Shown here: piece by piece, positions 26-59,429 of the stretch
How the letters are laid out: each line of letters begins with the position of its first letter
Position numbering within the stretch: position 1 is the first letter of the stretch
Assembly: GCA_963714605.1 (NCBI GenBank)
Contig: CAVQOW010000010.1
Span: 55,293-119,292, forward strand
DNA length: 64,000 nt
DNA from: an uncultured Verrucomicrobiae bacterium
GTDB taxonomy: Bacteria; Verrucomicrobiota; Verrucomicrobiia; Limisphaerales; CAVQOW01
Direction: 5' to 3'
Position numbers and translations under genes: made by a program
The notes under the pieces: generated by a model
What the model was told of the DNA's origin: nothing
The model's database searches: none
What the model saw: the letters and a program-made list of their open reading frames with translations, nothing else

Positions 26-631
26 GTGCTTTTGGCGCTGCCGCTGCTGGGTTTAATGGTCTGCCTGGCGGGTTGTGAGCAGCCGAAGCCGGCCACCAAA
101 TCAACGGAGAGCGCGGCGGGAGCGACTCCGTATGCTTCTTCGGCGCTTCAGGAGGGAGACGTCATTCGGGTCAGCTTCGAAGGCAACACCAATTTGAACA
201 CGCTCGCGAAGGTGCAGCTCGACGGCTCGATTAGCATGCCGCTCGTGGGTGATGTCAAGGCCGCCGGCAAAACTTTGCCGGAACTCAAGACCGACCTGAC
301 GACTCGTTATGAACGTCTGCTCAAGGAAAGTGAAATCTCGGTCACGCTCGTTTCCAGTGCCGCGATTGTTTATGTTTCAGGCGCGGTGCTGAAACCGGGC
401 CGCTACCCAATGGATCGCCCGCTCACCGTGTTGGATGCGATCATGGAGGCCGGCGGGTTTGACTATAATCGGGCCAAGCTGAGTGAAGTGACTGTCTACC
501 GGCTGGAGAACGGCGTGCAACAATACTACACCGTGAATTTGAAACGCACCTTGCGGGGCGTTGATTCTTCGCCGTTCTACCTCAAACCGTTCGACACCGT
601 CCGCGTGCCCGAAAAGACATTTAATTTCTAG
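26..631 (+). CDS. polysaccharide export outer-membrane lipoprotein (Wza-like, Poly_export + SLBB)
   Basis: 201-aa ORF; lipobox LAGC after signal peptide; Poly_export-like motifs (GDVIRV...LDGSISMPLVGDV...KPGRYP...AGGF). Confidence 0.7.
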   Translation: MLLALPLLGLMVCLAGCEQPKPATKSTESAAGATPYASSALQEGDVIRVSFEGNTNLNTLAKVQLDGSISMPLVGDVKAAGKTLPELKTDLTTRYERLLKESEISVTLVSSAAIVYVSGAVLKPGRYPMDRPLTVLDAIMEAGGFDYNRAKLSEVTVYRLENGVQQYYTVNLKRTLRGVDSSPFYLKPFDTVRVPEKTFNF

Positions 632-4957: not shown

Positions 4958-6151
4958 ATGAAACTTCGCACCGCCACCGCGTTGCGTTTCGCCGCACGGA
5001 CCGTTTCGCTGGCCGTTTTTTCGTTGTTGCTTGCCTTTACGCTGGCGCGCGGCGAATCCTCCAAGGCCGATTTCGCCTCGCCGCGCTTCTCCATCATCGT
5101 GCCGGGGCTGGAATACGCCCATGTGAGCGATCCTGCCAGGCCTTTGTCCATTCACATCGCCCGGCTTGACCGTGCCCGCCGCGAGTTCGATGTCATTACA
5201 ACTCTCGGCCGGGAAAAAATCCAAGGTCTCAGGACACTCTCGGAGCAGGCTGCATCCGTGTCACCGGCCATCGGGCAGCCGTTGGCCGCCGTGAACGGCA
5301 GTTTTTTCGTCCTTGACCCCGGCCCGTATCAGGGTGTTCCGGGAGGACTGCAGATCTTGAACGGCGGACTTGTCACGGCGCCGGACGGCCATTCGTTTTG
5401 GACCGAACCCGACGGACAACTTCGCATTGACACTGTTTATACCGAGTTCGAAGTCATCTGGCCCGGCGGCGAGAAGACACCAATGGGTCTGAACCAACCG
5501 CCAAAACCTGATGGCGTCACCCTGTTCACGCCCATTTTTGGCGATTCCACCCAGGCGAGCAATTCCATCGAACTCGTGCTCGAAAAAGTCGAGGGTCATA
5601 CATGGTTGCCCTTGCGCCCCAACCAGACCTATCCGGCCCGCGTGCGAGAAATCCGGCCACTGGGCAATACGCCGCTCGCACCTGACATCGCCATCCTCTC
5701 CGGGAACGGCAAAGTGACGAACCTTTTCGCAGTGATCAAACCCGGAGCGATCCTCCAACTATCCACTGGCATGAGCAAAGACCTTGACAGCGCACACAGT
5801 GCCATCGGCGGCAGTGCGCAACTCCTCCACAACGGCACACAGCCCGCTCTCCCGCCTGAGCGAGGCCTTAACGGCCTGCTGTTTCCGCGTAATCCGCGGA
5901 CAGCGTTGGGATTTAATAGCCGCTACTTTTACGTTGTCGTCGTGGATGGCAGGCAGAAAGAGTTGTCCGCCGGGATGAGTCTTGAGGAGTTGGTCGCATT
6001 CATGAAACGCCTTGGCTGCACCGACGCGTTGAATCTCGACGGCGGTGGCTCGACGACATTCTGGCTGAATGGGAAGGTGGTGAATTCGCCTTCGGAACAA
6101 CATGAGCGCCCGATTGCCAACGCAATCGTCATTGTGCGCAAGCCAGAATAG
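4958..6151 (+). CDS. secreted phosphodiester glycosidase family protein (NAGPA-like)
   Basis: ATG at 4958 followed by signal peptide; NGSFF and LDGGGS motifs typical of the family. Confidence 0.55.
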   Translation: MKLRTATALRFAARTVSLAVFSLLLAFTLARGESSKADFASPRFSIIVPGLEYAHVSDPARPLSIHIARLDRARREFDVITTLGREKIQGLRTLSEQAASVSPAIGQPLAAVNGSFFVLDPGPYQGVPGGLQILNGGLVTAPDGHSFWTEPDGQLRIDTVYTEFEVIWPGGEKTPMGLNQPPKPDGVTLFTPIFGDSTQASNSIELVLEKVEGHTWLPLRPNQTYPARVREIRPLGNTPLAPDIAILSGNGKVTNLFAVIKPGAILQLSTGMSKDLDSAHSAIGGSAQLLHNGTQPALPPERGLNGLLFPRNPRTALGFNSRYFYVVVVDGRQKELSAGMSLEELVAFMKRLGCTDALNLDGGGSTTFWLNGKVVNSPSEQHERPIANAIVIVRKPE

Positions 6152-7192
6152 CGGTTCCGGCGCATCCTTCACGAATTGACAGAAGGCCTCTCACACGTCC
6201 AAACTCGCACAGATTTTACGCGTGAAGTCCATCTCGTCCACGCCATCGTTGCATCCATCGAAAAAATGACATGAAATCCGCGGTGTCAGAGCGAATGCGG
6301 CTCAACGTTCGCGTTCGCGGCGCCGTGCAGGGAGTTGGTTTTCGTCCGTTCGTTTTCCGGCTCGCCACCGAACTCGACCTCGCGGGCTGGGTCAACAACT
6401 CGCCACAAGGCGTTTTCATCGAAGTCGAAGGATCGCGCGATGCCATTGAAAAATTCCTCCTCCGGCTTGAAGTCGAAAAACCGCCGCGTAGTTTCATTCA
6501 AAGCCTCGAAGCATCCTGGCTCGATGCTGTTGGCCACGTTCATTTTAAAATCCGCGAAAGCGAAACCGGCGGCGACAAGACCGCGCTCGTGCCGCCGGAC
6601 ATCGCGACCTGCGCCGATTGCTTCCGCGAAATCTTCGATCCAACCAACCGTCGCTATCATTACCCGTTCACGAACTGCACCCATTGCGGCCCGCGTTTCA
6701 GCATCATCGAATCGCTGCCTTATGATCGGGAGAACACCTCGATGAAGGCGTTCACAATGTGCCCGCAATGCCGGGCCGAGTACGACGACCCGGGCGACCG
6801 CCGCTTCCACGCCCAGCCCAACGCCTGTCCTGTTTGCGGCCCGCAGATCGAACTTTGGGATGGTGGTCGCGCTTGTAAAATCGCGGAAAGTGGGGATGCG
6901 ACAGGACGTCCGCGTTCTCACGAGCGCGGCTACGATGCTTTATTGGCAGCAGTGGATGCCATCCGTCGCGGCCAAATCGTCGCGGTGAAGGGCTTGGGCG
7001 GTTTCCATTTGATGGTGGACGCGCGCAACGACGAAGCCGTCCGCCGACTCCGGGAGCGAAAGCACCGCGAAGAAAAACCCTTCGCACTCATGTTTCCGTC
7101 GCTGGAGAGCGTAAAAGCTGACTGTGAAGTTTCGCCGCTGGAAGAACGACTGCTGCGCTCGCCCGAAGCACCGATCGTTCTCCTTTGGCAAG

Positions 7193-7220
7193 TCCGAAAT
7201 CCGAAACCTGAAATCCGAAA
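7193..7220. repeat. (TCCGAAA)x4 heptamer tandem array inside hypF, encoding ...VRNPKPEIRN...
   Basis: direct reading: tccgaaa tccgaaa cctgaaa tccgaaa. Confidence 0.8.
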
Positions 7221-7518
7221 TTCCTGTGCTCCCGGCAACCCATGCCTCGGTGTCATGCTCCCTTACACACCGCTTCATCACCTGCTTCTGGCTGAGCTCG
7301 GATTTCCCATTGTCGCCACCAGCGGCAATCTGAGCGATGAGCCGATTTGCATTGACGAGCGTGAAGCGATCGAACGTCTCGGCGGCTTCGCCGACGTTTT
7401 TCTCGTTCACAACCGTCCCATCGTTCGCCATGTGGACGATTCCGTCGTGCGCGTGATGCTCGGTCGCGAACTGGTTTTGCGTCGGGCGAGAGGGTTTGCC
7501 CCGTTGCCAATTACTTTT

Positions 7519-7553
7519 AAATCGAAAATCGAAAATCGAAAATCGAAAATCGT
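7519..7553. repeat. (AAATCGA)x4 + AAATCGT heptamer tandem array inside hypF, encoding ...FKSKIENRKSKI...
   Basis: direct reading of five 7-nt units. Confidence 0.85.
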
Positions 7554-8312
7554 CTTGGCCGTCGGCGCGCATTTGAAAAACGCCGTTGCCCTCTCGGTCG
7601 GCGACCAGGTTTTCATCAGCCAGCACATCGGCGATTTGGAGACAGAACAGGCATTTGCCGCCTTCCGCCGGGTCATTGCGGATTTTGAAAAACTCTACGG
7701 GGCGAAATCGCGAAATAATCGCTGCTGATTTGCACCCGGATTACCTTTCGACGAAATTGCGAGAGTGGCGCGCGAAGGCAAGAGTACGCATCTTGAGGCC
7801 GGAAACCTGCGCTACATAAGTGTCCAGCACCATATTGCACACGTTCTGTCATGCATGGCGGAAAATGAGTTATCGCCGCCAGCGCTCGGTGTGTCGTGGG
7901 ACGGCACGGGCTACGGCTTGGACGGAACGGTTTGGGGCGGAGAATTTTTTCTTGTCACCGACAAAAGCGTCGAGCGCGTTGCACATTTCCGCCCGTTTCG
8001 GTTGCCTGGCGGAGACAAGGCCGTCAAAGAACCGCGCCGCGCGGCGGCAGGATTGCTTTACGAGATGTTTGGTGCGGCAGTGTTTGAACGAAAAGAGTTA
8101 GCGCCCGTCGCGGCATTTTCGCCCGGTGAACTATCCACACTGAAAGCAATGCTCGCGCGTAATCTTAACTCGCCTTTTTGTTGCAGCGTCGGCCGGTTGT
8201 TTGACGCCGTCGCTTCGCTGACAAATTTCCGCCAGCAAATCCGCTTCGAAGGGCAGGCCGCAATGGAACTGGAGTTCGCGCTGGAGGGAATCGAAACTGA
8301 CGAAGCTTATGA

Positions 8313-8389
8313 ATTGCGGATTGCGGATTGCGGATTGCCGGAATCGTCGCTCGACGGAAATCCGAAATCCGAAATCCGAAATCCGCAAT
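8313..8389. repeat. 77-nt palindromic element: (ATTGCGG)x3 ATTGCCG, 17-nt spacer, (AAATCCG)x4, inside hypF
   Basis: inverted heptamer arrays able to fold as a hairpin; the hypF frame switches from 1 to 0 exactly here (77 mod 3 = 2). Confidence 0.8.
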
Positions 8390-8706
8390 TATCTTGGACT
8401 GGTCGCCGATGATGGAAGCGATGCTGGCCGACATGCAAAGCGGCATTTCCGTCGGCAAATTTCCGCCAAGTTTCACAACGCTTTGGTCGGAAGGCATCAT
8501 CGCCGTCGCCAAACGTGCCGGCCAAACGCGGTGGTGCTTTCAGGCGGCTGTTTTCAGAATCGTTATCTTACTGAGCGCGCGGTGCGACGACTGCAGGTGG
8601 AGGGATTCCGTCCCTATTGGCATCAGCGCGTGCCGCCCAACGACGGCGGCATTGCCTTGGGCCAAGTCATTGCCGCGCGGCGCGAGAAGGGGTAGAATGA
8701 CAAGAC

Positions 8707-8965: not shown

Positions 8966-10065
8966 AATATCTCGACGAATATCGCGACGGGGAGCTAGCG
9001 CAACAATTCGCGCGGGAGATCCATCGCGTCACGACCCGGCCGTGGAACATCATGGAAGTCTGCGGCGGCCAGACGCACGCCATCGTCAAGTTCGGCATCG
9101 ATGAATTGCTGCCCAAAGCCATCACGCTGATTCACGGTCCGGGCTGCCCGGTCTGCGTGACGCCGTTGGAAATGATCGACAAGGCGCTGGAGATCGCGGC
9201 GCGGCCCGGCGTGATTTTTGCCTCGTTCGGCGACATGCTGCGCGTGCCCGGCAGCACGACGGATCTGCTTTCGGTCAAAGCCAAGGGCGGCGACGTGCGA
9301 ATCGTTTATTCGCCGCTGGATGCGGTGAAGATGGCGGAACAAAATCCGGCCAAGGAGGTGGTTTTCTTCGGTGTCGGTTTTGAAACCACCGCGCCGGCAA
9401 CCGCGATGGCGGTTTATCAGGCTGCGCAGAAAGGCCTGAAGAATTTTTCGATGCTCATTTCGCACGTGCTCGTGCCGCCGGCGATCGAAGCGCTGATGTC
9501 GTCGCCGAACTGCAAGGTGCAGGGATTTCTTGCCGCCGGGCACGTCTGTGCCGTGATGGGCTACGAGGAATACCCGCCCATTGCGGCGAAATATCACGTA
9601 CCGATTGTCGTCACCGGTTTCGAGCCACTCGATATTTTGCAGGGCGTGCTGATGGTGGTGCAGCAACTGGAATCCGGCCGGGCCGAGGTTGAAAATCAAT
9701 ACACCCGCGCCGTGCGCCGCGAAGGCAACCAGCCGGCGCAGGAGCTGATCCGCAAGGTTTTCAAGGTCGTGCCCCGCAAGTGGCGCGGCGTCGGCGAAAT
9801 TCCGCAGAGCGGCCTCGGTTTGAACGACGCCTATGCCGCGTTCGACGCCGAAAAAAAATTCGGCCTGGCCGACCATCACGTTGACGAACCGGCCGAATGC
9901 CTCAGCGGCCTGGTTTTGCAGGGACAAATCAAACCGCACGAATGCCCGGCCTTCGGCACGCGCTGCACGCCGGAGCATCCACTCGGCGCGACGATGGTGT
10001 CATCCGAAGGCGCGTGTGCGGCGTATTACCGCTACCGGAGGCAACCGGCTGAAGCTGGAAAATGA
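8962..10065 (+). CDS. hypD: hydrogenase maturation factor HypD
   Basis: MKYLDEYRD... start; GPGCPVCV and other conserved HypD Cys motifs. Confidence 0.85.
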
Positions 10066-25841: not shown

Positions 25842-26013
25842 TACTCAAAAATCCGACTTTTTAACTTCAAATTCCGCCCACTCAACGTCGCGCATGTGCA
25901 CGGTTCCCAAAAGGGTGCGGGAATGTAGCAAACGAAACTGGATAATCCACTAAAATCTTTGAGAATTTTCGCTTTTGCCACGCAACAGCCCATAAAACCG
26001 CACCCGGCAGCGT

Positions 26014-26851
26014 TTATCCCTTCTCAATGCAGGCGTAGGCGTTGTGGTTGTGGATGCTTTCCTGGTTTTCCGCCTCGACCTTGTACCAAACCACATCCGG
26101 ATGAGCATTGAGCTTCAGCGCGATGTTGCGGACCAAATCCTCGACGAACACTGGATTGTCATACGCGCGCTCGGTGACGGCCTTTTCGTCCTCCCGCTTG
26201 AGCAAGGCGAACAACTCGGAACTGGCCGAACTCTCGATGATCTCAATCAAATCCTCGATCCAGATGGGCTTGCGAAAACGCACTTGCACCGGTCACTTCG
26301 CCGCGCTGGTTGTGCGCGCCGCGGGCGCTGATGGCTTTCGAGCACGGACAAAGCGTCGTTACGTTCGCCTTGACCGTCAGCAGAAATGCGATTTCCTTCT
26401 CGCACGCTGCCGCGTCGAAGCGCGCCGTGTAATCCATCACACTTTCTTTGCCCGACACTGGCGATCTCTTCACCATGAAATACGGGAACTCCATTTCCAG
26501 ATGCGACGTGGCCGCATGAAACTTCTCCTGCATTGCGTAAAGGATGTCCGGTATGTTTTCCACGTGCATGACGCTGCCATGCGCGTTGAGCACCTCGATG
26601 AACCGGCTCATGTGCGTCCCTTTGAACTCCTTGGGCAAATCCACGAACATCCCGATGGTCGCCACCGTGTTCTGCACGCTGTGCGCCTTGTCTCGGACCT
26701 GAATTGGAAACCGCAATCCGCGCACGCCAACCTTGTCAATGCGCAGTTCGCGATGGTCGCGCTCGCTTTGCTTGTCGTGGAGTTTGGGACGGCGTTTGCC
26801 GCCAGGATCACGAACAGCCGCTGACGCTTTGCTGTGGGTCAGTTTTGCCAT
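26014..26851 (-). pseudogene. folE2: GTP cyclohydrolase FolE2/MptA; frame break near 26285
   Basis: CPCSKAIS...GAHNQR motif in the 26243..26851 ORF; conserved C-terminus in the 26014..26289 ORF. Confidence 0.75.
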
Positions 26852-26981
26852 GGCTAGAAGTTAGCAAGAGGGTTCTGTTTTGCAAAAAATATCGCCTCGC
26901 CCTGTCGTCCTGCTTTTCCAGGACAATCCACGTGGTCAGTTGGATTTTGACTTGTGGACGCATGATGTTTATTACGCATCC

Positions 26982-27920
26982 ATGAATTTGAAATCGCTGT
27001 CGGTCGGTCTTGTCATCCGTTTCACGACCGCGCTTTTTTGTTCAAGCCTGGCCGCAGCCGAAACTTTCCGCGTCGCCACATACAACGTCGAAAATTATCT
27101 CGACCAAACCACCGAAACGCGACACGAGGTCAAATCCCCAGAAGCCAAAGCCAAAATCCGCCAAACCCTCCACGCCGCAAATCCCGATGTGATCGCCTTC
27201 GAGGAAATGGGCCAGCCCAGCGCGCTCATGGAACTGCGCAGTTCGCTCAAAACCGAGGGACTTGACTATCCTTATTGGGAATACGTCACTGGGTATGATA
27301 CGAACATCCATGTCGCCGTGCTCAGCAAATTCCCCATCATTGCGCGCCGACCCCATACGAACGACAATTTTCTTCTCAGCGGACGCCGCTTCCAGGTCAG
27401 CCGCGGATTTGCCGAGGTGGACATCAAGGTCAATCCGGCATATCAATTCACGCTCATCGCAGCCCATCTGAAATCGCGCCGCCCGATTCCGGAAGCCGAC
27501 GAAGACGAGTTGCGGCGGGAAGAAGCCAAGCTCCTGCGCGAAATCGTCAATGCGCGCCTTGAAGCAAATCCCAACGCCAACATCGTCGTGCTCGGCGATT
27601 TCAACGACGTGAAGGACTCGCGTTCGACGAAAGAAATCATCGGGAAAGGCAAATTCAAACTCGTGGACACACGCCCCGCCGAGCGCAATGGCGACAACCA
27701 ACCCAACCCGACAAACCCGAAATGGGAACCGCGCAACGTCACATGGACTTACTACTACGGCGTCGAAGACACCTACAGCCGGATTGATTACATCCTGCTC
27801 AGCCCCGGCATGGCGCGCGAGTGGGAGCCGAACGAAACCTACATTCCCACAATTTCAAACTGGGGCATCGGGTCGGACCACCGGCCCATCGTGGCGACAT
27901 TCACTGCCACCGACAAATAG
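26982..27920 (+). CDS. secreted endonuclease/exonuclease/phosphatase (EEP) family protein
   Basis: signal peptide; TYNVEN, VLGDFND and GSDHRPI motifs. Confidence 0.65.
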   Translation: MNLKSLSVGLVIRFTTALFCSSLAAAETFRVATYNVENYLDQTTETRHEVKSPEAKAKIRQTLHAANPDVIAFEEMGQPSALMELRSSLKTEGLDYPYWEYVTGYDTNIHVAVLSKFPIIARRPHTNDNFLLSGRRFQVSRGFAEVDIKVNPAYQFTLIAAHLKSRRPIPEADEDELRREEAKLLREIVNARLEANPNANIVVLGDFNDVKDSRSTKEIIGKGKFKLVDTRPAERNGDNQPNPTNPKWEPRNVTWTYYYGVEDTYSRIDYILLSPGMAREWEPNETYIPTISNWGIGSDHRPIVATFTATDK

Positions 27921-27950
27921 CCGCCACGCAACCGAAGCATCGTAGCACGA

Positions 27951-28871
27951 TTACTTTTTGCCTCTCGTAAAACCCGGCCGTGGACGGATCGGTGGCGGAA
28001 TGGGAATGCGCTTGGGCGGCAACGTTGGTGTGGACGGAGACGCCGTCGGCGGCGTGACCGAAGACTGTGGCCAGTTTTTCTGGGCAAGTTCCACGACTTG
28101 ACTGGCAACATTGGCGGCAGGTGATTCCGAAACCTTTGTCCCGATTGTTTCAATTCCTTTTGCCAGCCAATCCTCGGCCTTCGTCACCGTCTCGCCGATT
28201 TTCGTTTCGGGAAATTTCATCTCGCCGATCTGAAAATCGGTAAGCGACTTGAGTTTGTCCACGGTTTCACCCGCGGTTCTGACGACTTCAGTCCAACGGT
28301 CGCCCACTGTCGCCAACGTATCGTACCCGTTCACAATCCAATCGAGTTTGCCCGTCTGGATATCCACGACCAAACCGTGCACCGGCACTTTCGGACCGAT
28401 GAGCGGACTGTGCCGGACAATGTCGCACGCCTTGATGACGTTCTGCCGCTCGCTGCCGAACATGCCGAAGTAATCATTGATGTTCTCCGGCAACACGCGC
28501 CGTTCCACGCCCAGCGCCTTCAGCTTGTCGAGCAACTGCGTCGTCGTCGTCTTGCACACCTGACAATCCGTGTGGCCGATGATGGCGATTTCCTTGCCGC
28601 CCTTGACCGCGCACGCCAGCGCCAGCGACCGCATCGTGCTGCTGAGCGGCGCGGTGATGATGTTGCCCGCATTGCGCAACCAGATGAAACTCTCTTCCGG
28701 AACTCCGAGCACGCCCGGCATGAGCCGATTCAGTCGCGGGTCAACGCACGTCAGCGCCACGACCGGCAATTCGCTCTCGAACTCCGCCACATGGACTCCG
28801 GCGTTTTGATCGCCCGCAACCGCGCGACTGTTCGCTTCGATAATGGCTTCAAAAAGGCGCATGGCTGGCAT
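27951..28871 (-). CDS. beta-class carbonic anhydrase with Pro-rich C-terminal extension
   Basis: CVDPR and GHTDCQ zinc-ligand motifs. Confidence 0.8.
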   Translation of the reverse strand: MPAMRLFEAIIEANSRAVAGDQNAGVHVAEFESELPVVALTCVDPRLNRLMPGVLGVPEESFIWLRNAGNIITAPLSSTMRSLALACAVKGGKEIAIIGHTDCQVCKTTTTQLLDKLKALGVERRVLPENINDYFGMFGSERQNVIKACDIVRHSPLIGPKVPVHGLVVDIQTGKLDWIVNGYDTLATVGDRWTEVVRTAGETVDKLKSLTDFQIGEMKFPETKIGETVTKAEDWLAKGIETIGTKVSESPAANVASQVVELAQKNWPQSSVTPPTASPSTPTLPPKRIPIPPPIRPRPGFTRGKK

Positions 28872-28915
28872 GGAATTATCCCTCTTGCCTCAATTGGTCA
28901 AACAATGAATCAAAA
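28798..28915. repeat. native copy of about 118-nt repeat (first 25 codons of the carbonic anhydrase gene plus about 45 nt upstream)
   Basis: matches 30082..30199 at about 92% identity and 29523..29578 partially. Confidence 0.8.
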
Positions 28916-28990
28916 GGCCGCCTCTGCCGGTCAGTTTCGAGGTCGCCCTTTTTGTTTGCAGTTGCGGCCCAGGCAAGTTCAACTCTGGTC

Positions 28991-29272
28991 ATGCTGACTT
29001 TTGAATGGAACGCGAACAAGGCCGGATCAATTCTGGCCAAGCACGGTGTCAGCTTTGAAGAAGCGGCGACGGTTTTTGGCGATCCCGCTTCAATAACAAT
29101 TCCAGACCCGGCGCACTCGCAAATGGAAACGCGATTCGTCATCTTGGGCCGTTCGCATCAAGGAAGATTGTTGGTTGTCATCCACACCGAACGCGGCGAT
29201 AATATCCGCATCATCAGCGCGCGGCACGCGAGCCGGCGCGAAAGAAAAAGCTATGAAGAAACCATCGGCTAA
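28991..29272 (+). CDS. brnT: BrnT-like toxin (DUF497)
   Basis: MLTFEWNANKAGSILAKHGVSFEEAATVF... typical of the BrnT family. Confidence 0.65.
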   Translation: MLTFEWNANKAGSILAKHGVSFEEAATVFGDPASITIPDPAHSQMETRFVILGRSHQGRLLVVIHTERGDNIRIISARHASRRERKSYEETIG

Positions 29273-29474
29273 ACCGGCGGTTAAAGATATGCGGGCGGAA
29301 TATGATTTTTCGCGCGGCGTGCGCGGCAAACATTTCCGACGCTACCATCGCGGCGCGAACGTGGTGGTCTTGGGGCCGGACGTGGCCAAGGTTTTTTCCA
29401 ATGCCGAAACCGTGAACGATTCTCTCCGCGCGCTGGCGGGCATCATCCGCCGACAAAAAGCGGTAGCGAGATAA
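29253..29474 (+). CDS. brnA: BrnA-like antitoxin
   Basis: small ORF overlapping the brnT 3' end; ...EYDFSRGVRGKHF... C-terminus. Confidence 0.5.
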   Translation: MKKPSAKPAVKDMRAEYDFSRGVRGKHFRRYHRGANVVVLGPDVAKVFSNAETVNDSLRALAGIIRRQKAVAR

Positions 29475-29522
29475 TTTCCTTCTCCGCGCTGGGGAGAAGG
29501 TGGCCGGAGGCGGGATGAGGTG

Positions 29523-29578
29523 GATCGCCGGCAACCGCGCGACTGTTCGCTTCAATAATGGCTTCAAAAAGGCGCATG
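29523..29578. repeat. partial (56-nt) copy of the carbonic-anhydrase 5' repeat
   Basis: encodes ...MRLFEAIIEANSRAVAGD... out of context. Confidence 0.8.
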
Positions 29579-29584
29579 CCGGCT

Positions 29585-29803
29585 TTACTTCATTTCCCGT
29601 AGGAAATCCTCAATCTCTACTCCGCCATCACGCAATGCACCTTTCAGCGTGAAGCGGTCAACTTCGTCGTGAAAAGGAAACACGATCAACCTTCCATCGG
29701 GATGCTTCATCTTCACGTGACTGCCTTTGCGATGAATCTCCTGAAAACCCAGGCGCTGCAAAGCGGTCAACACCTGTCTGCCGGACAGGAGCGGCAATTT
29801 CAT
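29585..29803 (-). CDS. hicA: HicA mRNA-interferase toxin
   Basis: 72 aa; ...GFQEIHRKGSHVKMKHPDGRLIVFPFH... Confidence 0.75.
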   Translation of the reverse strand: MKLPLLSGRQVLTALQRLGFQEIHRKGSHVKMKHPDGRLIVFPFHDEVDRFTLKGALRDGGVEIEDFLREMK

Positions 29804-29997
29804 ACCGTCAATTCGACCACTTCGCGTTTGCCTGCCAGTTCTTCGGGCGATGGTTCAAGATAGAGATCAATCGCTTCCCGGATATTTATCAAAGCCTCCT
29901 CGCGTGTCTTGCCCTGTGACCAGCAACTCTTCAGCGACGGACAATGCGCCACGAAGTAGCCGTCCTCACCGGGTTCAATTATCACTTTCAAGTTCAT
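29800..29997 (-). CDS. hicB: HicB antitoxin (UPF0150)
   Basis: MNLKVIIEPGEDGYFVAHCPSLKSCWSQGKTREEALINIREAI...; ATGA overlap with hicA. Confidence 0.7.
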   Translation of the reverse strand: MNLKVIIEPGEDGYFVAHCPSLKSCWSQGKTREEALINIREAIDLYLEPSPEELAGKREVVELTV

Positions 29998-30081
29998 GCC
30001 ATTTGCCTTTCGTTCACGGGTGCAATGTAAACCGGCCAAAATCGAAAAGCCAGTTCATCGGCAAACTCCGTCGGATGCAAA

Positions 30082-30199
30082 CCGGCGTTTTGATCGCCGG
30101 CAACCGCGCGACTGTTCGCTTCAATGATGGCTTCAAAGAGGCGCATGGCTGACATGGAATTATCCCTCTTGCCTCAATTGGTCAAACACTGAATCAAAA
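30082..30199. repeat. third copy of the carbonic-anhydrase 5' repeat, pseudo-start MSAMRLFEAIIEANSRAVAGDQNAG...
   Basis: about 92% identical to 28798..28915. Confidence 0.8.
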
Positions 30200-30311
30200 T
30201 GCCGCTTGCGCGCAGTTCAACTCCGCAAATGCGAAGTTCGTGACCGACTACAAGAATGCCCGCATTATTGTGGATTCAACCGGCCGTAGCGCGAGAACTT
30301 ACTTTGCTCTT

Positions 30312-30683
30312 TTAATTGTGAGTTGAATTGATCGAATTTGTGCAACTGTTTGAATTCGTAGCTGCCAGATTCAAGTGGGTAATGCTTATTATTGCTTCAC
30401 GGCGAATTTCGTAAACAGTTGGTTTGTTCGTACTGCCCCTCCATTCTGCCGGCCCACCGGCTTCATTGGTCGAAGCGAGAAGAACAATACTACTATTCGC
30501 ATCAAGCAAAATCATACGGTTTGCTAAAAGTCCATTTACCACGTTTGTTGGTATTGAATTTAAAAATCTAGCGTCAAAATCTAATCGAACGGGATGAGAC
30601 ATTGTATAATCCCCACCACCTTTCGCCAGCCCGCCGCAGACTCCAGCGACCTGTCGGTCATCGCGTGAACGGCTGAGGTTCAT
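30312..30683 (-). CDS. hypothetical protein with PspC-like N-terminal motif, no TM segment
   Basis: RSRDDRQVAGVCGGLA resembles the PspC domain core; remainder unassignable. Confidence 0.25.
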   Translation of the reverse strand: MNLSRSRDDRQVAGVCGGLAKGGGDYTMSHPVRLDFDARFLNSIPTNVVNGLLANRMILLDANSSIVLLASTNEAGGPAEWRGSTNKPTVYEIRREAIISITHLNLAATNSNSCTNSINSTHN

Positions 30684-30688
30684 GTTGA

Positions 30689-30742
30689 ATTTACGATTTA
30701 CGATTTGCGATTTGCAATTGCGATTGCGATTTTCGATTCACG
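30689..30742. repeat. array of about 8 ATTTACG/ATTTGCG/ATTGCG units, abutting the stop of the four-helix-bundle gene
   Basis: direct reading. Confidence 0.8.
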
Positions 30743-31097
30743 CGCGGTTGGAAGTGCGGGCGGTTTTTGCCGATGAGACGACGATGGCCAGGATTTCATC
30801 GGATTCTTTCATCAAATCTCGAAGCAGCGATTCCTTGATATAATTGTTTTCCACCAGCAGTTCCATCCAGAACAATGATTCATCGCATTCTTCTTCAACA
30901 ATGCGAAGCTTGTTGATGAAGTCCGCGCCGGATTTCGCCCGACAGACAGCGCGGTAATTCGCACCCACAGAAGTCCCGCTACGAAGAAGCTGTTTTCCGA
31001 GTGTTTGCGCAACCCAATCACCCGGCAACGCAGAGCAGAGCTTCACGACACGATTGGCGTAAGTCTTCGTCCGATCTTTCATTTCCTCGCGCGTCAT
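30738..31097 (-). CDS. four-helix-bundle protein (23S rRNA intervening-sequence protein / Avd-like family)
   Basis: ...LGKQLLRSGTSVGANYRAVCRAKSGADFINKLRIVEEECDESLFWMELL... matches the family core. Confidence 0.8.
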   Translation of the reverse strand: MTREEMKDRTKTYANRVVKLCSALPGDWVAQTLGKQLLRSGTSVGANYRAVCRAKSGADFINKLRIVEEECDESLFWMELLVENNYIKESLLRDLMKESDEILAIVVSSAKTARTSNRA

Positions 31098-31100
31098 AGG

Positions 31101-31238
31101 ATTTACGATTTACGCGCGCCTTTTGATCTCGTCATCTGTGACATGAGCGTTGCGCATCTGTTTTCGTTTGAGTTCACAACAACCCAGCAGGCATGGATTT
31201 TCGACAGACTCGTAAATCGTATATCGTAAATCGTCAAT
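31101..31238. repeat. inverted heptamer arrays (ATTTACG x2 ... CGTAAAT CGTATAT CGTAAAT CGTCAAT) flanking a 96-nt core; between the four-helix-bundle gene start and the flotillin stop
   Basis: direct reading. Confidence 0.8.
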
Positions 31239-32762
31239 TTATTCGTCTTTTTTGCCCATCGCCTTTTTAAGTGCGGGGACTTGTTCCAGCAATTTCTCAA
31301 ACTTTACGCCGGTCAAACTTTCCAACACCGGCGGCAACTGGCTGATGATGGTCGTCACGTCGCCGGTGAGCTTGCTCGCGCCGCCGCCCGGCCCGTTGCC
31401 GGAATTGATGATGACCATCTTCTCAGTCTTGCTGAGCGGCTCGCTGATCTTGCCAGCGACTTCCGGCAGCACGCGCACAATCATTTCGATGACGGCGGCC
31501 TCGTTGTATTGCTTGAAGCTTTCGGCTTTGTTCTTCATCGCCTCGGCAGTCGCCTTGCCTTGCGCTTCGATGACGGCGGCTTCGGCCAGACCACGCGCTT
31601 TGTTCGCTTCGGCTTCGGCGATACCGGTGGCCTTGGCGACATCCGCGTTGGCAAAACCTTTGGCCTTGGCGGCGGATGCAGCGCCAGCGGCTTCGGTTTC
31701 GAGTTGGAACTTCGTGGCGTTGGCGAGCGTCTCGACTTTGTAGCGTTCGGCGTCGGCGGGTTTCTGGACGTTGGCTTCCAGTTCGCGCTGCTTTCGTTGA
31801 ATTTCCTGCTGTTGCAGCTCGATTTGCTTCTGCTTCTCGATGATTTGCACCTGCACTTCTTCCGCTTTCACCAACTGGCCGGTCTTGAATTTCTGCAAAT
31901 CATACGCGAGGTCGGCCTCGGCTTTCTTCTGATTCACCGCGGCCTGATATTGCGCGACGTTGGATTGATAATCGCGTTGCGCCTCGGCGACCTTGGTGTC
32001 GGCGGCAAACTTCGCTTCCTGTCCAGCCTGCGTGGCTTGTGACGACTTGATCATCGCGTCGCGGTCGGCTTCGGCCTGCGCGATCTGCGCGTCGCGTTTG
32101 ACCTGCGCGATACGCGGTTTGCCGAGCGCTTCGAGGTAACCCTGGCTGTCGCGAATGTCCTTGATCGTGAAGCTGACGATGCCGAGACCCATGTTGGCCA
32201 TGTCGCCCGCGGCGACTTCCTGAACCTTGGAAGCGAAGGCATCGCGGTTCTGATAAATGTCCTCGACGGTCATCGTGCCGAGGATGGCGCGAAGATGGCC
32301 TTCAAGCGTTTGCATCGCGACCCCTTTGATTTCATCGGTCGTTTTGCTGAGGAATTGCTCGGCGGCGGTGGCGATTGAAACGTCATCTCCTTTGACCTTG
32401 ATTTGCGCCACGCCATCCACGCGCACCGGCACGCCCTTGCTGGTATAGACATCCTGCTCCTGCTGCACGTCAATGGTGAGCAGTTCGAGCGACAGAATGT
32501 CCACCTTTTCAAAGACCGGCCACACGAAGACGCCGCCGCCTTTGACAATGCGGAAGCCGACGTCGCGCGCCGCGCCGTCCGGATCCACGATGCGGTGTTT
32601 GCGCCCGGAAATGACGAGCACCTGGTTCGGGCCGACCTTGGTGTAGCGGCTCGCCCAAATACCGGCGAAGATGAAGAAGACCAGCATGAGCGCGCCCACG
32701 CCCATGATGACGGTCAGCCATGGAATTTCGCCTGCAACGGCAAGAATAGGAGTCAGGTTCAT
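31239..32762 (-). CDS. flotillin-like SPFH/band-7 protein
   Basis: N-terminal TM, SPFH domain, long EA-rich coiled-coil (FloT/YuaG-like). Confidence 0.85.
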   Translation of the reverse strand: MNLTPILAVAGEIPWLTVIMGVGALMLVFFIFAGIWASRYTKVGPNQVLVISGRKHRIVDPDGAARDVGFRIVKGGGVFVWPVFEKVDILSLELLTIDVQQEQDVYTSKGVPVRVDGVAQIKVKGDDVSIATAAEQFLSKTTDEIKGVAMQTLEGHLRAILGTMTVEDIYQNRDAFASKVQEVAAGDMANMGLGIVSFTIKDIRDSQGYLEALGKPRIAQVKRDAQIAQAEADRDAMIKSSQATQAGQEAKFAADTKVAEAQRDYQSNVAQYQAAVNQKKAEADLAYDLQKFKTGQLVKAEEVQVQIIEKQKQIELQQQEIQRKQRELEANVQKPADAERYKVETLANATKFQLETEAAGAASAAKAKGFANADVAKATGIAEAEANKARGLAEAAVIEAQGKATAEAMKNKAESFKQYNEAAVIEMIVRVLPEVAGKISEPLSKTEKMVIINSGNGPGGGASKLTGDVTTIISQLPPVLESLTGVKFEKLLEQVPALKKAMGKKDE

Positions 32763-32793
32763 AGGATGATTTATTGGTTTGGGTTTGGATGAT

Positions 32794-33351
32794 TTACTTC
32801 ACAAGTTCCACGAAAAATTGAGTGCCGACGACACGCGTGATTTTGACCGTCGCCCCGGCGGGAACGGCGACGCCTTTCTCGGAACGCGCGGGCGCGGTAT
32901 AACGGGTGCTGGATTGCACGTAGGCGATTTCGCCAACGCCGTTCTCAGGAATCGGCGTAACGATGGAGGCGGCCTGGCCAACCAAGGTCGCCACTCGGGA
33001 TTCGCTGGAGCTTTGCGTCTTGCTGAACATCGTGTTGAACAGCCAGAACGCAGCCCGAGCGATGCAAAGGCCGCCGACGATCGAAAGCGGCGCGCTGACC
33101 CAGCCGCTCGAAGTCGGCTCAATCCGGCTGAAAATGATGCCCAACGCGCCAAATGCGGTGACGAATGTGGCGAGCACCGTGGGGCTGAAAAAAGAAATCC
33201 CCGGCATGCCGCTGTGATCAAAGCCCGCTTCGGCGTGTCCGCCCGTTCCAACGTCAACGTGGCCGTCATGGCCGCCGAAGAAGTGGCCGGCGACGGCGCT
33301 AATGAGAGTGAAAAGAAGACCGACGACCAGACAGATTGCGTAAATTATCAT
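32794..33351 (-). CDS. NfeD-family membrane protein (YuaF-like), operon partner of flotillin
   Basis: 2-3 TM helices and C-terminal OB-fold-like region; conserved nfeD-floT gene order. Confidence 0.7.
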   Translation of the reverse strand: MIIYAICLVVGLLFTLISAVAGHFFGGHDGHVDVGTGGHAEAGFDHSGMPGISFFSPTVLATFVTAFGALGIIFSRIEPTSSGWVSAPLSIVGGLCIARAAFWLFNTMFSKTQSSSESRVATLVGQAASIVTPIPENGVGEIAYVQSSTRYTAPARSEKGVAVPAGATVKITRVVGTQFFVELVK

Positions 33352-33484
33352 AAGCCCTCGCTGAGTTCGTTTTGTTGGCCAAAGTTAAAGGCCAACGCGC
33401 ACTGTAGGCAAGCAGGAATGCGTCTTTCCCCAACAGAAGGAAAAACCAGTTTGACAATTTTGCGCGGCCTGACTGAATGAAGCC

Positions 33485-33871
33485 ATGACGAATGTTCCTG
33501 CGGATTTAAAATACACCAAGTCGCACGAGTGGGTGCGGGTCAGCGGCGCCACTGCGGTCGTCGGCATCACCGACCACGCGCAGCATGAATTGACCGACGT
33601 GGTGTTTGTGGAGCTGCCTGAAGTGGGGCGCAAAGTGAAGGCGGGCGACGCCTGCGCGGTCGTCGAATCCGTGAAAACGGCCTCTGATATTTATTCGCCC
33701 GTCAGCGGCGAAATTTTGGAAGCGAACAAGTTGGTTGTGGAAGACCCGGCTTTGGCGAACAGCGAGCCGTACGCGAGCGGCTGGTTCTTCAAAATCAAAC
33801 TTTCCAATCTTGCCGAGTTGGACGGACTCCTGACGCCTGTCAAGTATTCGGCACAAATAAATCCGGCGTAA
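33485..33871 (+). CDS. gcvH: glycine cleavage system H protein
   Basis: lipoyl-Lys motif region ...[20 protein letters not shown]... Confidence 0.9.
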
Positions 33872-33920
33872 AGTGCTGCTGACCTCTTGCAATTTTCCCG
33901 CCCTCCACGAGAGTCTAATC

Positions 33921-34193
33921 GTGAAATCGAAACAGGTCCGATTGTTTGTGAAGCTTTACTGTCCGTGGTGTCATCGCGCAATGCAGTGGCTCGACAACCA
34001 CGGCATCGAATACGAGAGAATTGACGTGATGGCGAACGAAGCAGCGTATGCGGAGATGATCCAGCTTTCCGGCCAGGAACTTGCGCCGGTGATTGAAGTG
34101 GATGGAAAAGTGCTTGCCGATTTCGGCCCGGAACAATTGGCCGTGTTTTGGAAGCAATGGGAAGAAAAGCATGTCCCCGCCGACTCTCGCTGA
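33921..34193 (+). CDS. glutaredoxin-like protein (CPWC active site), GTG start
   Basis: VKLYCPWCHRA..., about 90 aa. Confidence 0.5.
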   Translation: MKSKQVRLFVKLYCPWCHRAMQWLDNHGIEYERIDVMANEAAYAEMIQLSGQELAPVIEVDGKVLADFGPEQLAVFWKQWEEKHVPADSR

Positions 34194-35067
34194 ACCGCCC
34201 GCGCGTCCCCGTTTGCCGGAATGGCTGCGCATCAAGCTGCCCACCTCCGATTCCTTCGGTCGAACGTGCAGCCTGCTTGACGAACTGAAGCTCCACACGG
34301 TCTGCGAAAGCGCGAAATGCCCGAATCACTGGGAATGCTGGAGCAAAGGCACGGCCACGTTCATGATTGGCGGCGACCGCTGCACGCGCGCCTGCGGCTT
34401 TTGCGCCGTGACAACGGCCAAACCGTTCGCGCTCGACCCGGACGAGCCGAAGCGTGTTGCGGAAGCCACACGGCGGATGCGGTTGCGGCACGTCGTCATC
34501 ACCGGTGTCGCGCGTGATGATTTGGCGGACGGCGGCGCAAATCATTTTCGCGAGACGATTGAAGCCGTTCGCGGGTTGAATCCTCGCACTGTCATCGAGG
34601 TGCTCGTGCCGGATTTCAACGACCGCGATGCTTCGATTGACACCGTGCTTTCGGCAAATCCGCACATCTTCAATCACAACCTCGAAACCGTGCGTCGGCT
34701 CACGCCTGCCGTGCGTTCGCGGGCGACCTACGACCGTTCGCTGAGCGTGCTCGGCAAAGTGAAGACAAAACGCGGCGATTCGGTTTACACGAAATCCGGC
34801 ATGATGTTCGGTTTGGGTGAAACCGAAGAGGAGGTGCTGACGGCGATGCAGGACTTGCGCGCCGTCGGTTGTGAGATTCTCACGTTGGGCCAGTATTTGC
34901 AGCCCACATTACGACACTTGCCCGTGAGGGAATTTATTACGCCGGCGAAATTCGCGGAATATGGCGGCTTGGCGCGGGCGATGGGTTTCATGCACGTGGC
35001 AAGCGGGCCGGTGGTCCGCAGTTCCTATCATGCCGATGAATTTATGCTGCCGTCAGTGCGGGGGTAG
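34171..35067 (+). CDS. lipA: lipoyl synthase
   Basis: CESAKCPNHWEC and CTRACGFC radical-SAM cysteine clusters. Confidence 0.9.
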   Translation: MSPPTLAEPPARPRLPEWLRIKLPTSDSFGRTCSLLDELKLHTVCESAKCPNHWECWSKGTATFMIGGDRCTRACGFCAVTTAKPFALDPDEPKRVAEATRRMRLRHVVITGVARDDLADGGANHFRETIEAVRGLNPRTVIEVLVPDFNDRDASIDTVLSANPHIFNHNLETVRRLTPAVRSRATYDRSLSVLGKVKTKRGDSVYTKSGMMFGLGETEEEVLTAMQDLRAVGCEILTLGQYLQPTLRHLPVREFITPAKFAEYGGLARAMGFMHVASGPVVRSSYHADEFMLPSVRG

Positions 35068-57204: not shown

Positions 57205-58302
57205 CTAAAAAGCAAAGTTGGCCCACGGATTGGTGATGCTGAATGCAGGCCCGGGCGTACTAATTATCTGACCGTATGCTGTGTCACCGGCACCTGTAAC
57301 ATCAAAATCAAATCCACCGTTGCCCTTCGCGGTGTTGCGCACGATGAAGTTTCGGTGAGCGGTATTATCCACCAGAATTCCACGAAATAAATTGGTCACA
57401 ACATGGTTGCCGTCAATGCGGTTATTGTCACCTCGGGCATGGATGCCGGCGAAGGTGGCGTTGTTGGTTACGCCGTTGCCAGTGCAGGTGTTCCCAAGAA
57501 CCTGGCAGTTATTAAACACGACAATGCCATCGCCGCCGTTGTTGTTCGCCGTGCAGTCTTTTACGGTGCAGGCGTCATCTGTGAAAATGCCTGCGTAGCC
57601 ATTCCAACCATTGGCATCAACCAAACAGTCTGTGACGACGGACCTTTTTCCCACCATTATTCCGTTCTGATAGTTGGTCTGCGCTACGCAATTCTTAATC
57701 ATCACGCCGTTCCCGTTCGCCGCCAGAATGCCGTTGCCATTGTTGGTCCTCACAACGCATTCAACGACAAGACAGCCATCCTGCACTGCAATTCCGTTAT
57801 GATTTCTCTCAGCCACGCAATTTTTCACCGCGCTACCGGGGCCGATGTTTAATTCAGAGACGGCGTTGTCGGAAGCTCGCAACTGCTCGAATTGGCCGTT
57901 GCTCCAATAGACTGATTGAATGCCGTTTCGCCAGGAGCGTAAGGTGCCGTTGCGAACGCAGAGATTTCTCCCGCCGTTGGCATCCGCAGAAATGCCATCC
58001 AGCGCACCGGAGATGCCGGTCATGACGAAACCATTCAGATCCAGCGTCACATCGCTCGCGAAGATCGTAATTCCGTTTGTGCCGGCGACACCGATGAGAT
58101 TGGCGGTCAAATAATACGAGCCGGAGTTGGTGATATTGATCGGCAATGATGAAATGGGTGTGCGCGGTTGAATTTGGTCAAGCGTCTTCATAGTCGGCCC
58201 GGGCGGTCCCACTGGCGTGAGACTGCCTTGAGCCATTACCTGCATGCTGTTGCTGGCCAGCGCAATTACGCAGACCATTTGGATAAGGTGCTTCCTGTTC
58301 AT
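57205..58302 (-). CDS. secreted parallel beta-helix repeat protein (paralog A)
   Basis: signal peptide; N/G/T-rich beta-helix repeats. Confidence 0.6.
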   Translation of the reverse strand: MNRKHLIQMVCVIALASNSMQVMAQGSLTPVGPPGPTMKTLDQIQPRTPISSLPINITNSGSYYLTANLIGVAGTNGITIFASDVTLDLNGFVMTGISGALDGISADANGGRNLCVRNGTLRSWRNGIQSVYWSNGQFEQLRASDNAVSELNIGPGSAVKNCVAERNHNGIAVQDGCLVVECVVRTNNGNGILAANGNGVMIKNCVAQTNYQNGIMVGKRSVVTDCLVDANGWNGYAGIFTDDACTVKDCTANNNGGDGIVVFNNCQVLGNTCTGNGVTNNATFAGIHARGDNNRIDGNHVVTNLFRGILVDNTAHRNFIVRNTAKGNGGFDFDVTGAGDTAYGQIISTPGPAFSITNPWANFAF

Positions 58303-58337
58303 AAGGTGTCTTTCTTAAAATTAGACGTCTTAACTTT

Positions 58338-59417: not shown

Positions 59418-59429
59418 AAACGTCTCTTT

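Follow-up and report, generated by a model that had tools for sequence, protein, structure and literature searches.

In a 64,000-nt stretch of the genome of an uncultured Verrucomicrobiae bacterium (contig CAVQOW010000010.1, positions 55,293 to 119,292; hereafter the window, in whose positions all coordinates are given), the 5′ end of a beta-carbonic-anhydrase (CA) gene occurs three times, and the copies bracket two small predicted toxin-antitoxin (TA) cassettes, a BrnT/BrnA-like pair (brnTA) and a HicB/HicA pair (hicBA). Truncated copies of the CA start, which we call relics, recur in at least nine genomes. We favor, with moderate confidence, the interpretation that the region just 5′ of the CA start codon is a long-lived landing site for accessory cassettes in a clade of Verrucomicrobiota, and that homology-anchored illegitimate or single-crossover recombination at this hotspot left the relics behind as scars.

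Comparison loci were collected by scanning genomes and metagenomes with the CA protein, which gave 71 loci, all from Verrucomicrobiota and none above 78% identity, and by look-ups of HicA and BrnT homologues, which gave a further 14. The comparison sequences are metagenome assemblies throughout, and loci are cited below by their L numbers.

Three copies of the carbonic anhydrase gene start

The genes of interest lie on the minus strand in the order NfeD, flotillin (Flot), a variable gap, and CA. The CA gene has a Pro_CA domain (PF00484, E = 7.6e-11, 43 bits against a cut-off of 25.7, residues 38-176). Of its two in-frame ATG codons, at 28871 (which opens the Pro_CA open reading frame (ORF) 27951..28871) and at 28862 (MRLFEAI), we take the latter as the real, conserved start because the CA proteins of all relatives begin there, with M(R/H/K)L(F/L)EAI right after the upstream gene. 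The features of the array, listed toward CA, are:

30051-30205, minus strand: copy C of the CA start, a relic covering -59..+96
29994..30155, minus strand: pseudo-ORF of 53 aa, opened by copy C
30024-30053, minus strand: promoter-like element CTGGCT-N18-TACATT, 26 nt ahead of hicB
29800-29997, minus strand: hicB, HicB_lk match (PF15919)
29585-29803, minus strand: hicA, HicA match (PF07927)
29523-29578, minus strand: copy B of the CA start, a relic covering -1..+55
29477..29522: spacer of 46 nt between the end of brnA and copy B
28940..29476, plus strand: brnT/brnA-like cassette, in opposite orientation to CA
28991-29272, plus strand: brnT, BrnT match (PF04365)
29253-29474, plus strand: 73-aa partner of brnT, no Pfam match
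28780-28921, minus strand: copy A, -59..+83 of the live CA gene, the portion repeated in copy C
27951..28862, minus strand: intact beta-carbonic-anhydrase gene, Pro_CA match (PF00484)

An earlier note on this DNA had described a recurrence of the CA 5′ end, and our repeat search confirmed it. A direct repeat of 142 nt (28780-28921 and 30064-30205) has 91% identity, and a 56-nt family has three members (28808-28863, 29523-29578, and 30092-30147) with 93-96% identity, the second of which is the partial copy; the repeated sequence is the 5′ end of the Pro_CA gene. A core 23-mer occurs exactly three times in the window, against 0.00 occurrences expected from shuffles. The further copies that the note proposed to look for were absent, with no fourth copy of the CA-start repeat anywhere in the 64 kb. 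Relative to the ATG at 28862, copy A runs from -59 onward, copy B covers -1..+55, and copy C covers -59..+96, and the order is C[-59..+96]-hicBA-B[-1..+55]-brnAT-A[-59..]. Copy B is 96% identical to A and likewise to C. The proposal that the copies delimit a BrnT/BrnA and a HicA/HicB module was borne out by the Pfam matches between them.

Copy C is a mosaic. Its head, -59..+63 (30084-30205), matches copy A at 115 of 122 positions (94%), compared with 22 of 39 (56%) over +64..+102, a contrast with a Fisher p of 1.5e-7. The tail (30051-30083) still encodes the CA-like peptide AGLHPTEFADEL and is nearer to the CA genes of other species (36/42 for L029, 34/42 for L079) than to copy A (29/42). The pseudo-start ORF noted earlier is also present (29994..30155, beginning MSAMRLFEAIIEANSR...), and its TGA stop overlaps the ATG of hicB (ATGA).

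The palindrome ccggcg-ttttgat-cgccgg, to which the earlier note drew attention, does exist, but it is perfect in copy C only (30082-30100), being imperfect in A and truncated in B, and it derives from two Ala-Gly codon pairs (GCCGG...GCCGG). Single-strand DNA folds of the repeats were no better than those of shuffles (z scores of +0.3 to -1.7), with no attC-like hairpin. The spacer at 29477..29522 contains an 8-bp inverted repeat (29478-29485 and 29493-29500) and forms a novel junction with CA +55 at 29522/29523. A sigma-70 scan called no promoter in the shared -59..-1 segment, where TTGACC-15 nt-GATAAT has a spacer that is out of range.

Two predicted toxin-antitoxin cassettes of different age

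The plus-strand cassette has a BrnT (DUF497) toxin domain (PF04365, 4e-29, 101 bits) and a small gene that overlaps brnT by 20 nt, an arrangement on which we class it as a predicted BrnT/BrnA-type pair. The 73-aa product of the second gene has no BrnA match in Pfam or NCBIfam and is BrnA-like by position only; it is conserved, and partner genes also lie 3′ of brnT in L072 (73 aa) and L073 (85 aa). The brnTA unit of 537 nt starts about 50 nt ahead of brnT, in the cassette's own upstream region, and ends at the brnA stop. As a whole it is 89% identical to L072 3376-3912, where it sits between rpsJ and an ApeA-HEPN gene, and across 419 aligned nt (window 28990-29408) it is 87% identical to L073, where it sits between bipA and manC. 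Homology to L072 does not continue beyond 29476, and no flanking repeat was found at the L073 brnTA locus. The cassette thus appears to travel as a minimal promoter-to-stop unit without terminal repeats. Among the loci compared, only the window has brnTA next to the CA start, and because the unit shares 89% identity with a cassette from an unrelated locus, it is probably a more recent arrival at the site than hicBA.

L072 also contains a 101-nt direct repeat (2032-2132 and 5288-5388, 83% identical) made of a hairpin plus a start ATGGCAAAGAAAACC..., which precedes an N6_N4 methyltransferase gene and an ApeA-HEPN gene on either side of rpsJ-rplC. It may be another duplicated gene start beside acquired defense genes.

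In the minus-strand cassette, hicA has a strong HicA match (PF07927, 1e-15, 57.9 bits) and hicB has a HicB_lk match (PF15919) of 26.9 bits against a cut-off of 27; 65-aa HicB orthologues carry precomputed PF15919 matches. With a HicA toxin domain adjoining a HicB-type antitoxin, the two genes are a predicted HicA/HicB pair. The hicA stop lies 7 nt ahead of the copy B ATG, and hicA ends 6 nt before copy B. All of the nearest HicA homologues that we looked up (89-92% identical) directly adjoin a Pro_CA gene. At the nucleotide level hicBA is 85% identical to L079, 79% to L080, and 77% to L078, in a range comparable with CA (77-79%) and Flot (81-84%). Because hicBA has diverged as much as its core flanks, we regard it as an old resident at the CA start.

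The element CTGGCT-N18-TACATT starts where the CA-homologous part of copy C ends. The pattern [CG]TGG[CT][ATG]-N18-TAnnnT has a single match in the 64-kb window (30053-30024) and is found again after the relic or before the first cassette gene in L017, L001, L078, L079, L080, L083, L018, and L056, that is, at the upstream edge of the unrelated TA cassettes hicBA, DUF2281-PIN, and MNT-HEPN. It is probably a promoter type common to these cassettes. Sigma-54 was considered for the CTGGCA motif and rejected, as there is no GC 10 nt after the GG.

A variable gap and its relics in relatives

The NfeD-Flot-CA order is kept across about 80 related Verrucomicrobiota loci, and the Flot-CA gap varies in length from 55 nt to 3.1 kb and in content. 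Two classes of genes occupy it. The first comprises apparently native small membrane genes (PLDc_N, PspC, zinc-ribbon, TerB-like). The second comprises acquired cassettes, which always adjoin the CA ATG: HicBA in the window, L006/L080-L085, L078, and L079, with the end of a HicA-like gene read by eye in L045; DUF2281-PIN in L017 and L035, with a remnant in L014; MNT-HEPN in L018, L051, L056, and L057; HNH in L001; and a Bro-N-like gene in L009. The final cassette gene (HicA, PIN, HEPN, HNH, or Bro-N-like) stops 1-25 nt before the CA ATG. Cassettes and relics therefore vary among relatives, and the uniformity in copies and content that the earlier note had named as the outcome that would speak against its proposal was not seen.

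In every case the relics preceded acquired cassettes; none lay among the native small membrane genes. L001 has one relic, and L017 has two in an array like that of the window. L056 and L018 share a junction ahead of MNT-HEPN, with the relic of L018 degenerate, as is that of L079. The arrangement relic-DUF2281-hicB-hicA-CA was found in L080-L085, six independent samples and assemblies of one species. In L010 a 117-nt relic (9231-9348) lies inverted downstream of CA; over +55..+99 it matches the L045 CA at 100% identity and its own CA at 87%. In the 8 kb fetched upstream of the L010 CA no flotillin gene was detected, which suggests that this CA gene was inverted or translocated. The same cassettes also occur without a relic in L051, L057, and L078, and L014 likewise lacks the duplication.

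Relics end at +52/54, +55, +69, +72, +96, or +117, which makes five or six distinct junctions. All contain at least +1..+52. Homology of the relics to the live gene begins at the ATG, because the upstream genes end 1-25 nt before it and conservation starts there. Past the CA-homologous part, L001 and L080-L085 have an identical junction, and a looser sharing of this sequence extends to the second relic of L017 (b), L079, L078, and copy C of the window. At least one junction is therefore old and common to several genera, with cassettes swapped behind it. Because one relic/cassette junction is common to several genera and hicBA has diverged like the flanking core genes, turnover at the hotspot is slow, on a genus time scale.

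Gene conversion between relics and the live gene

Several observations indicate that the live CA gene and the relic of the same genome exchange sequence by gene conversion. The copies group according to the genome they come from. Among 75 CA starts, AGT at codon 12 occurs in the three window copies only. Likewise, ATG at codon 8 is unique to both copies in L001, although the relic/cassette junction is common to L001 and L080-L085. Of 27 differences between copies in the first 54 nt, 22 fall at the third codon position (p = 8e-4 against 0.5). We base this reading on these shared lineage-specific codons, on the third-position bias, and on the head/tail mosaic of copy C.

Our first reading of the relics was as fragments of foreign CA alleles, given the synonymous bias, the tail similarities, and the match between L010 and L045. 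It was mostly dropped: since orthologous relics (those of L001 and L080-L085) have codons specific to the lineage in which they reside, most of the similarity of the heads is better attributed to gene conversion. A foreign origin of the relic tails is possible. Conversion with the live gene would keep the first ~55-120 nt of the relics similar to it, and relics that have diverged too far would decay (L018 and L079) or be deleted (L051, L057, and L078). A diversity-generating retroelement was also considered and rejected, as a reverse transcriptase is lacking and the differences show no specificity for adenine.

Origin of the relics and alternative explanations

The window shows a partial duplication of an anchor gene flanking foreign DNA, with the intact gene on one side, as expected of a recombination footprint. 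The foreign nature of the inserts is supported by the 87-89% identity of brnTA to cassettes at two unrelated loci and by the varying cassette content among relatives. We propose that incoming DNA was joined illegitimately within the first 52-117 nt of CA, with an entire CA start retained or provided on the downstream side, so that every event would leave a shortened CA start stranded ahead of the new cassette. A linear fragment with its anchor in CA could do this by homology-facilitated illegitimate recombination, and a circularized fragment with a CA 5′ piece by Campbell-type single-crossover integration (insertion-duplication). In Escherichia coli, single-crossover integration yielded 109-950 bp duplications of the homologous gene end and was much commoner than true homology-facilitated illegitimate recombination (PMC3240628); the latter has been proposed to drive sequential displacement in type VI secretion system (T6SS) and Rhs arrays (PMC5361080). 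Applied to the window, the scenario would have copy C left by an old event, before the promoter and hicBA, and copy B by a later event that brought brnTA. One homologous join and one illegitimate join, the latter at 29522/29523, between relatives of the hicBA type and the brnTA type would suffice. The inverted brnTA would cut CA off from upstream transcription, so that a -59..-1 segment bearing a putative promoter would be needed before copy A. The cassettes, mostly TA pairs, would be trimmed to promoter-to-stop units without mobility genes of their own, and the relics would be non-functional scars. Because the operon is tightly packed and selection would favor an intact CA, surviving insertions would be those at the ATG or with a duplicated start.

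Several points weigh against this scenario. Microhomology at the junctions is short or unclear: at the C-type junction CA has CTGCC and the cassette CTGGC (CTG at +94..96), and none is demonstrable for B. We put the route and the order of events conditionally because no donor or intermediate genome was found, nor a sister with brnTA only or hicBA only, the nearest relative having 78% CA identity. Look-ups by exact sequence with the CA of the window (both choices of start), HicA, and BrnT matched no recorded contig, so that there was no sister assembly of the strain to compare. Five or six junctions fall within ~65 nt, three of them at +52..+55, a clustering that exceeds what a purely random illegitimate process would give. 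The near-perfect abutment of cassette stop and CA ATG would require selection or deletional trimming in addition to recombination. Finally, several window ORFs have no Pfam match and the contig is longer than the window, so a recombinase acting in trans is possible.

The earlier note had proposed repeated site-specific insertion at the CA 5′ end. The recurrent landing site is supported by relatives that have other cassettes and their own relics, but the site-specific mechanism is not, as no recombinase or att features were found. In such a platform, integron-like or left by integrative elements, a recombinase encoded elsewhere would act on a site in the first ~55 nt of CA, regenerating the start and leaving attL/attR-like copies. 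It would explain why every relic has at least +1..+52, why three junctions fall at +52..+55, why different cassettes occupy one spot in many lineages, and why tandem arrays occur in the window and L017; SXT/R391 elements are known to integrate into the 5′ end of prfC with a new start supplied. However, relic ends spread from +52 to +117, the repeats lack a hairpin or attC structure, and brnTA was found elsewhere without a flanking repeat. A Pfam scan of the local small ORFs and of 40 ORFs chosen from all parts of the window, each 200 aa or longer, returned housekeeping functions and no integrase, transposase, or recombinase, so that the search for a recombinase suggested by the earlier note came back empty within the ORFs scanned; the Flot-CA gaps examined in the ~80 loci likewise had none. 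The inserted DNA itself (0.4-1 kb, with TA genes only) contains no recombinase, no inverted repeats were found at cassette ends, and searches of viral contigs, phages, and plasmids matched neither the CA-start repeat nor the whole module. The divergence of hicBA in step with its core flanks would also make turnover very slow for such a system. We consider a site-specific platform unlikely. The more specific idea that the first ~55 nt of CA are the attachment site of an undescribed cassette-capture system, whose recombinase, encoded elsewhere, inserts promoter-to-stop TA or defense cassettes and regenerates the start, seems to us slightly less probable again; we keep it in view because the junctions cluster and the cassettes abut exactly. 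Integron-like accretion, also raised in the earlier note, found no support. No intI was found beside the array among the ORFs scanned, no attC-like hairpin was detected, and the cassettes, 6-50 nt from the repeats, are neither promoterless nor in one orientation: brnTA is inverted relative to hicBA and CA, and each of the two cassettes comes with an upstream region of its own that relatives conserve.

The suggestion that each event duplicated its target, taken as a target-site duplication, does not fit the window. In situ, a transposition- or Cas1-like staggered cut with fill-in would have duplicated 55-140 nt per insertion, and the single-relic loci L001 and L056, taken alone, do have the form relic, insert, full gene. 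The order C-hicBA-B-brnAT-A, however, excludes nested target-site duplications, and one homologous plus one illegitimate join yields it. Copy B lacks the -59..-1 segment that the downstream copy A has, C extends to +96 and B ends at +55, and the mosaic C has a tail nearer to the CA genes of other species. The repeats are of unequal extent, neither a transposase nor a terminal inverted repeat was found, and the same cassettes occupy the site without duplication in L051, L057, L078, and L014. The anatomy has already largely refuted this mechanism, and we regard it as highly improbable. An assembly artefact, in which the assembler strung together variants of the strain that differ in their cassettes, one after another, by way of k-mers common to them, is harder still to credit. 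The window and all relatives are metagenome assemblies, which is what makes it conceivable. Nevertheless, the copies differ by 4-9%, one is only 56 nt and thus below the k = 141 given in the contig titles of several relatives (the assembler of the window is not known), and the junctions CA +55/spacer and CA +96/promoter would be absent from any simple variant. Moreover, relic-DUF2281-hicBA-CA was recovered by six independent samples and assemblers, and analogous structures came from other studies.

A different kind of proposal, compatible with any origin, concerns retention only: relics may be kept because they are useful, as leader ORFs coupling the cassette to the upstream operon or as decoys for a CA regulator. 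The ATGA overlap of the copy C ORF with the hicB start, the mostly synonymous differences (22/27 third positions), and persistence across genus-level divergence would fit. Yet every genome has its own ORF length and stop position, some relics are degenerate or contain frameshifts (L079 and L018) or are lost (L051, L057, and L078), and the predicted cassette promoter lies downstream of the relic, which is then unneeded for expression. Gene conversion accounts for the synonymous bias and the persistence, and we think a useful role improbable, more so than a site-specific platform and less so than target duplication.

Flanking genes and other features

Upstream of copy C, the gap and its left flank contain:

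32794-33351, minus strand: NfeD-like gene, left flank of the variable gap
31239-32762, minus strand: flotillin gene, Band_7/Flot Pfam matches, left flank of the variable gap
30738-31097 (unit 30688-31239), minus strand: 23S_rRNA_IVP gene, inside 26-nt inverted repeats of TACGATT heptamers
30621-30683, minus strand: first 21 codons of a PspC-like gene, joined to AT-rich orphan DNA (30206-30620)

The PspC Pfam match is limited to residues 2-21, and the adjoining DNA has a GC content of 43-45%. The longest ORF in this AT-rich DNA (97 aa) had no homologue among 5.8 billion proteins and no family match. PspC is an intact gene ahead of CA in L003, L005, L007, L027, and L043, and the PspC-start fusion at 30206-30683 is another scar within the Flot-CA gap. 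The 23S_rRNA_IVP unit, whose product is of the four-helix-bundle class, has a third partial repeat copy at 31097-31114. Its gene was not found in the Flot-CA gap of any relative, and it looks like a further insertion into the gap, resembling a small self-contained unit.

An Rfam scan of 26000-35000 gave no matches. ARAGORN called an 82-nt tRNA-Ala(cgc) at 34515-34596, which is doubtful, as no Rfam tRNA match at E <= 0.1 was obtained over 26000-35000. Elsewhere in the window, hypF contains the heptamer AATCGAA 4.5 times in frame (7520-7552) and is split ~170 nt downstream (7700-7765) into ORFs 6271-7728 and 7765-8412, apparently by two compensating frameshifts; a pseudogene, a sequencing error, or a slippage-prone tract are possible causes. 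At 57205-59419, tandem paralogues (57205-58302, with beta-helix/NosD Pfam matches, and 58338-59417, with none) have a 213-nt 5′ segment in common at 85% identity.

Relation to known systems and significance

The locus resembles the T6SS effector-immunity arrays of Vibrio cholerae and orphan Rhs/CDI arrays (PMC5361080) in that toxin/antidote modules arrive repeatedly beside a conserved homology-anchor segment and truncated pieces of a conserved gene are displaced and retained, with no integrase. There, the fragment that is repeated comes from the toxin gene itself, so that toxin tips can be swapped when it recombines. In the present locus it comes from the 5′ end of a housekeeping enzyme gene unrelated to the toxins, each module is a type II TA pair under its own promoter, and no role for the relic is evident. 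Insertion-duplication (PMC3240628) gives the same sequence of truncated gene end, insert, and complete gene, but in an experimental plasmid system in E. coli with duplications of 109-950 bp; here they are 52-155 nt in natural genomes, no circular intermediate was observed, and gene conversion and deletion have reshaped the relics since. Like cDHS1/2 of Pseudomonas aeruginosa (PMC10250203), the Flot-CA gap is a fixed interval between conserved genes with variable defense or accessory content. Many occupied cDHS sites have no detectable mobility gene (29% for cDHS1 and 47% for cDHS2), and exchange via homologous flanks has been proposed for them (PMC10250203). Those sites, however, span kilobases to hundreds of kilobases beside tRNA or tmRNA genes and turn over within species, whereas the gap described here spans 0.05-3 kb, has a start codon as its right edge, changes on a genus time scale, and retains gene-start relics.

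Chromosomal integron arrays likewise consist of small, often TA-encoding cassettes in tandem at one chromosomal site, with a repeated element between them. They differ from the present locus, where the search of window ORFs found no intI, a coding 5′ end without an attC hairpin serves as the repeat, and the cassettes have mixed orientation and their own promoters. Elements of the SXT/R391 type in prfC share the general form, in that a replacement 5′ end keeps the gene intact and the old 5′ end is left upstream; they are large, however, encode a tyrosine recombinase themselves, and use a fixed att core of short length, and the locus described here shows none of these features. The evidence favors regarding the locus as a variant of core-gene-flanked hotspots (PMC10250203) and of sequential-displacement arrays, with slow accretion by general recombination and gene conversion.

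If a recombinase did target the site, the locus would represent a cassette platform of a new kind, whose att site lies in coding sequence and which an order of Verrucomicrobiota has conserved. Under the recombination scenario that we prefer, the meaning lies in the record itself. Small TA operons are clearly mobile yet lack mobility genes, and their entry into chromosomes and persistence there are poorly documented. The locus would be a readable natural record of minimal cassettes gathering at one gene boundary across genera of uncultivated Verrucomicrobiota, in which stranded gene starts mark single acquisition events and gene conversion keeps the scars legible. The number of relics and their junctions may thus serve as a marker for tracing cassette turnover in metagenomes, and the record supports ordinary recombination as a route by which these bacteria gain cassettes.

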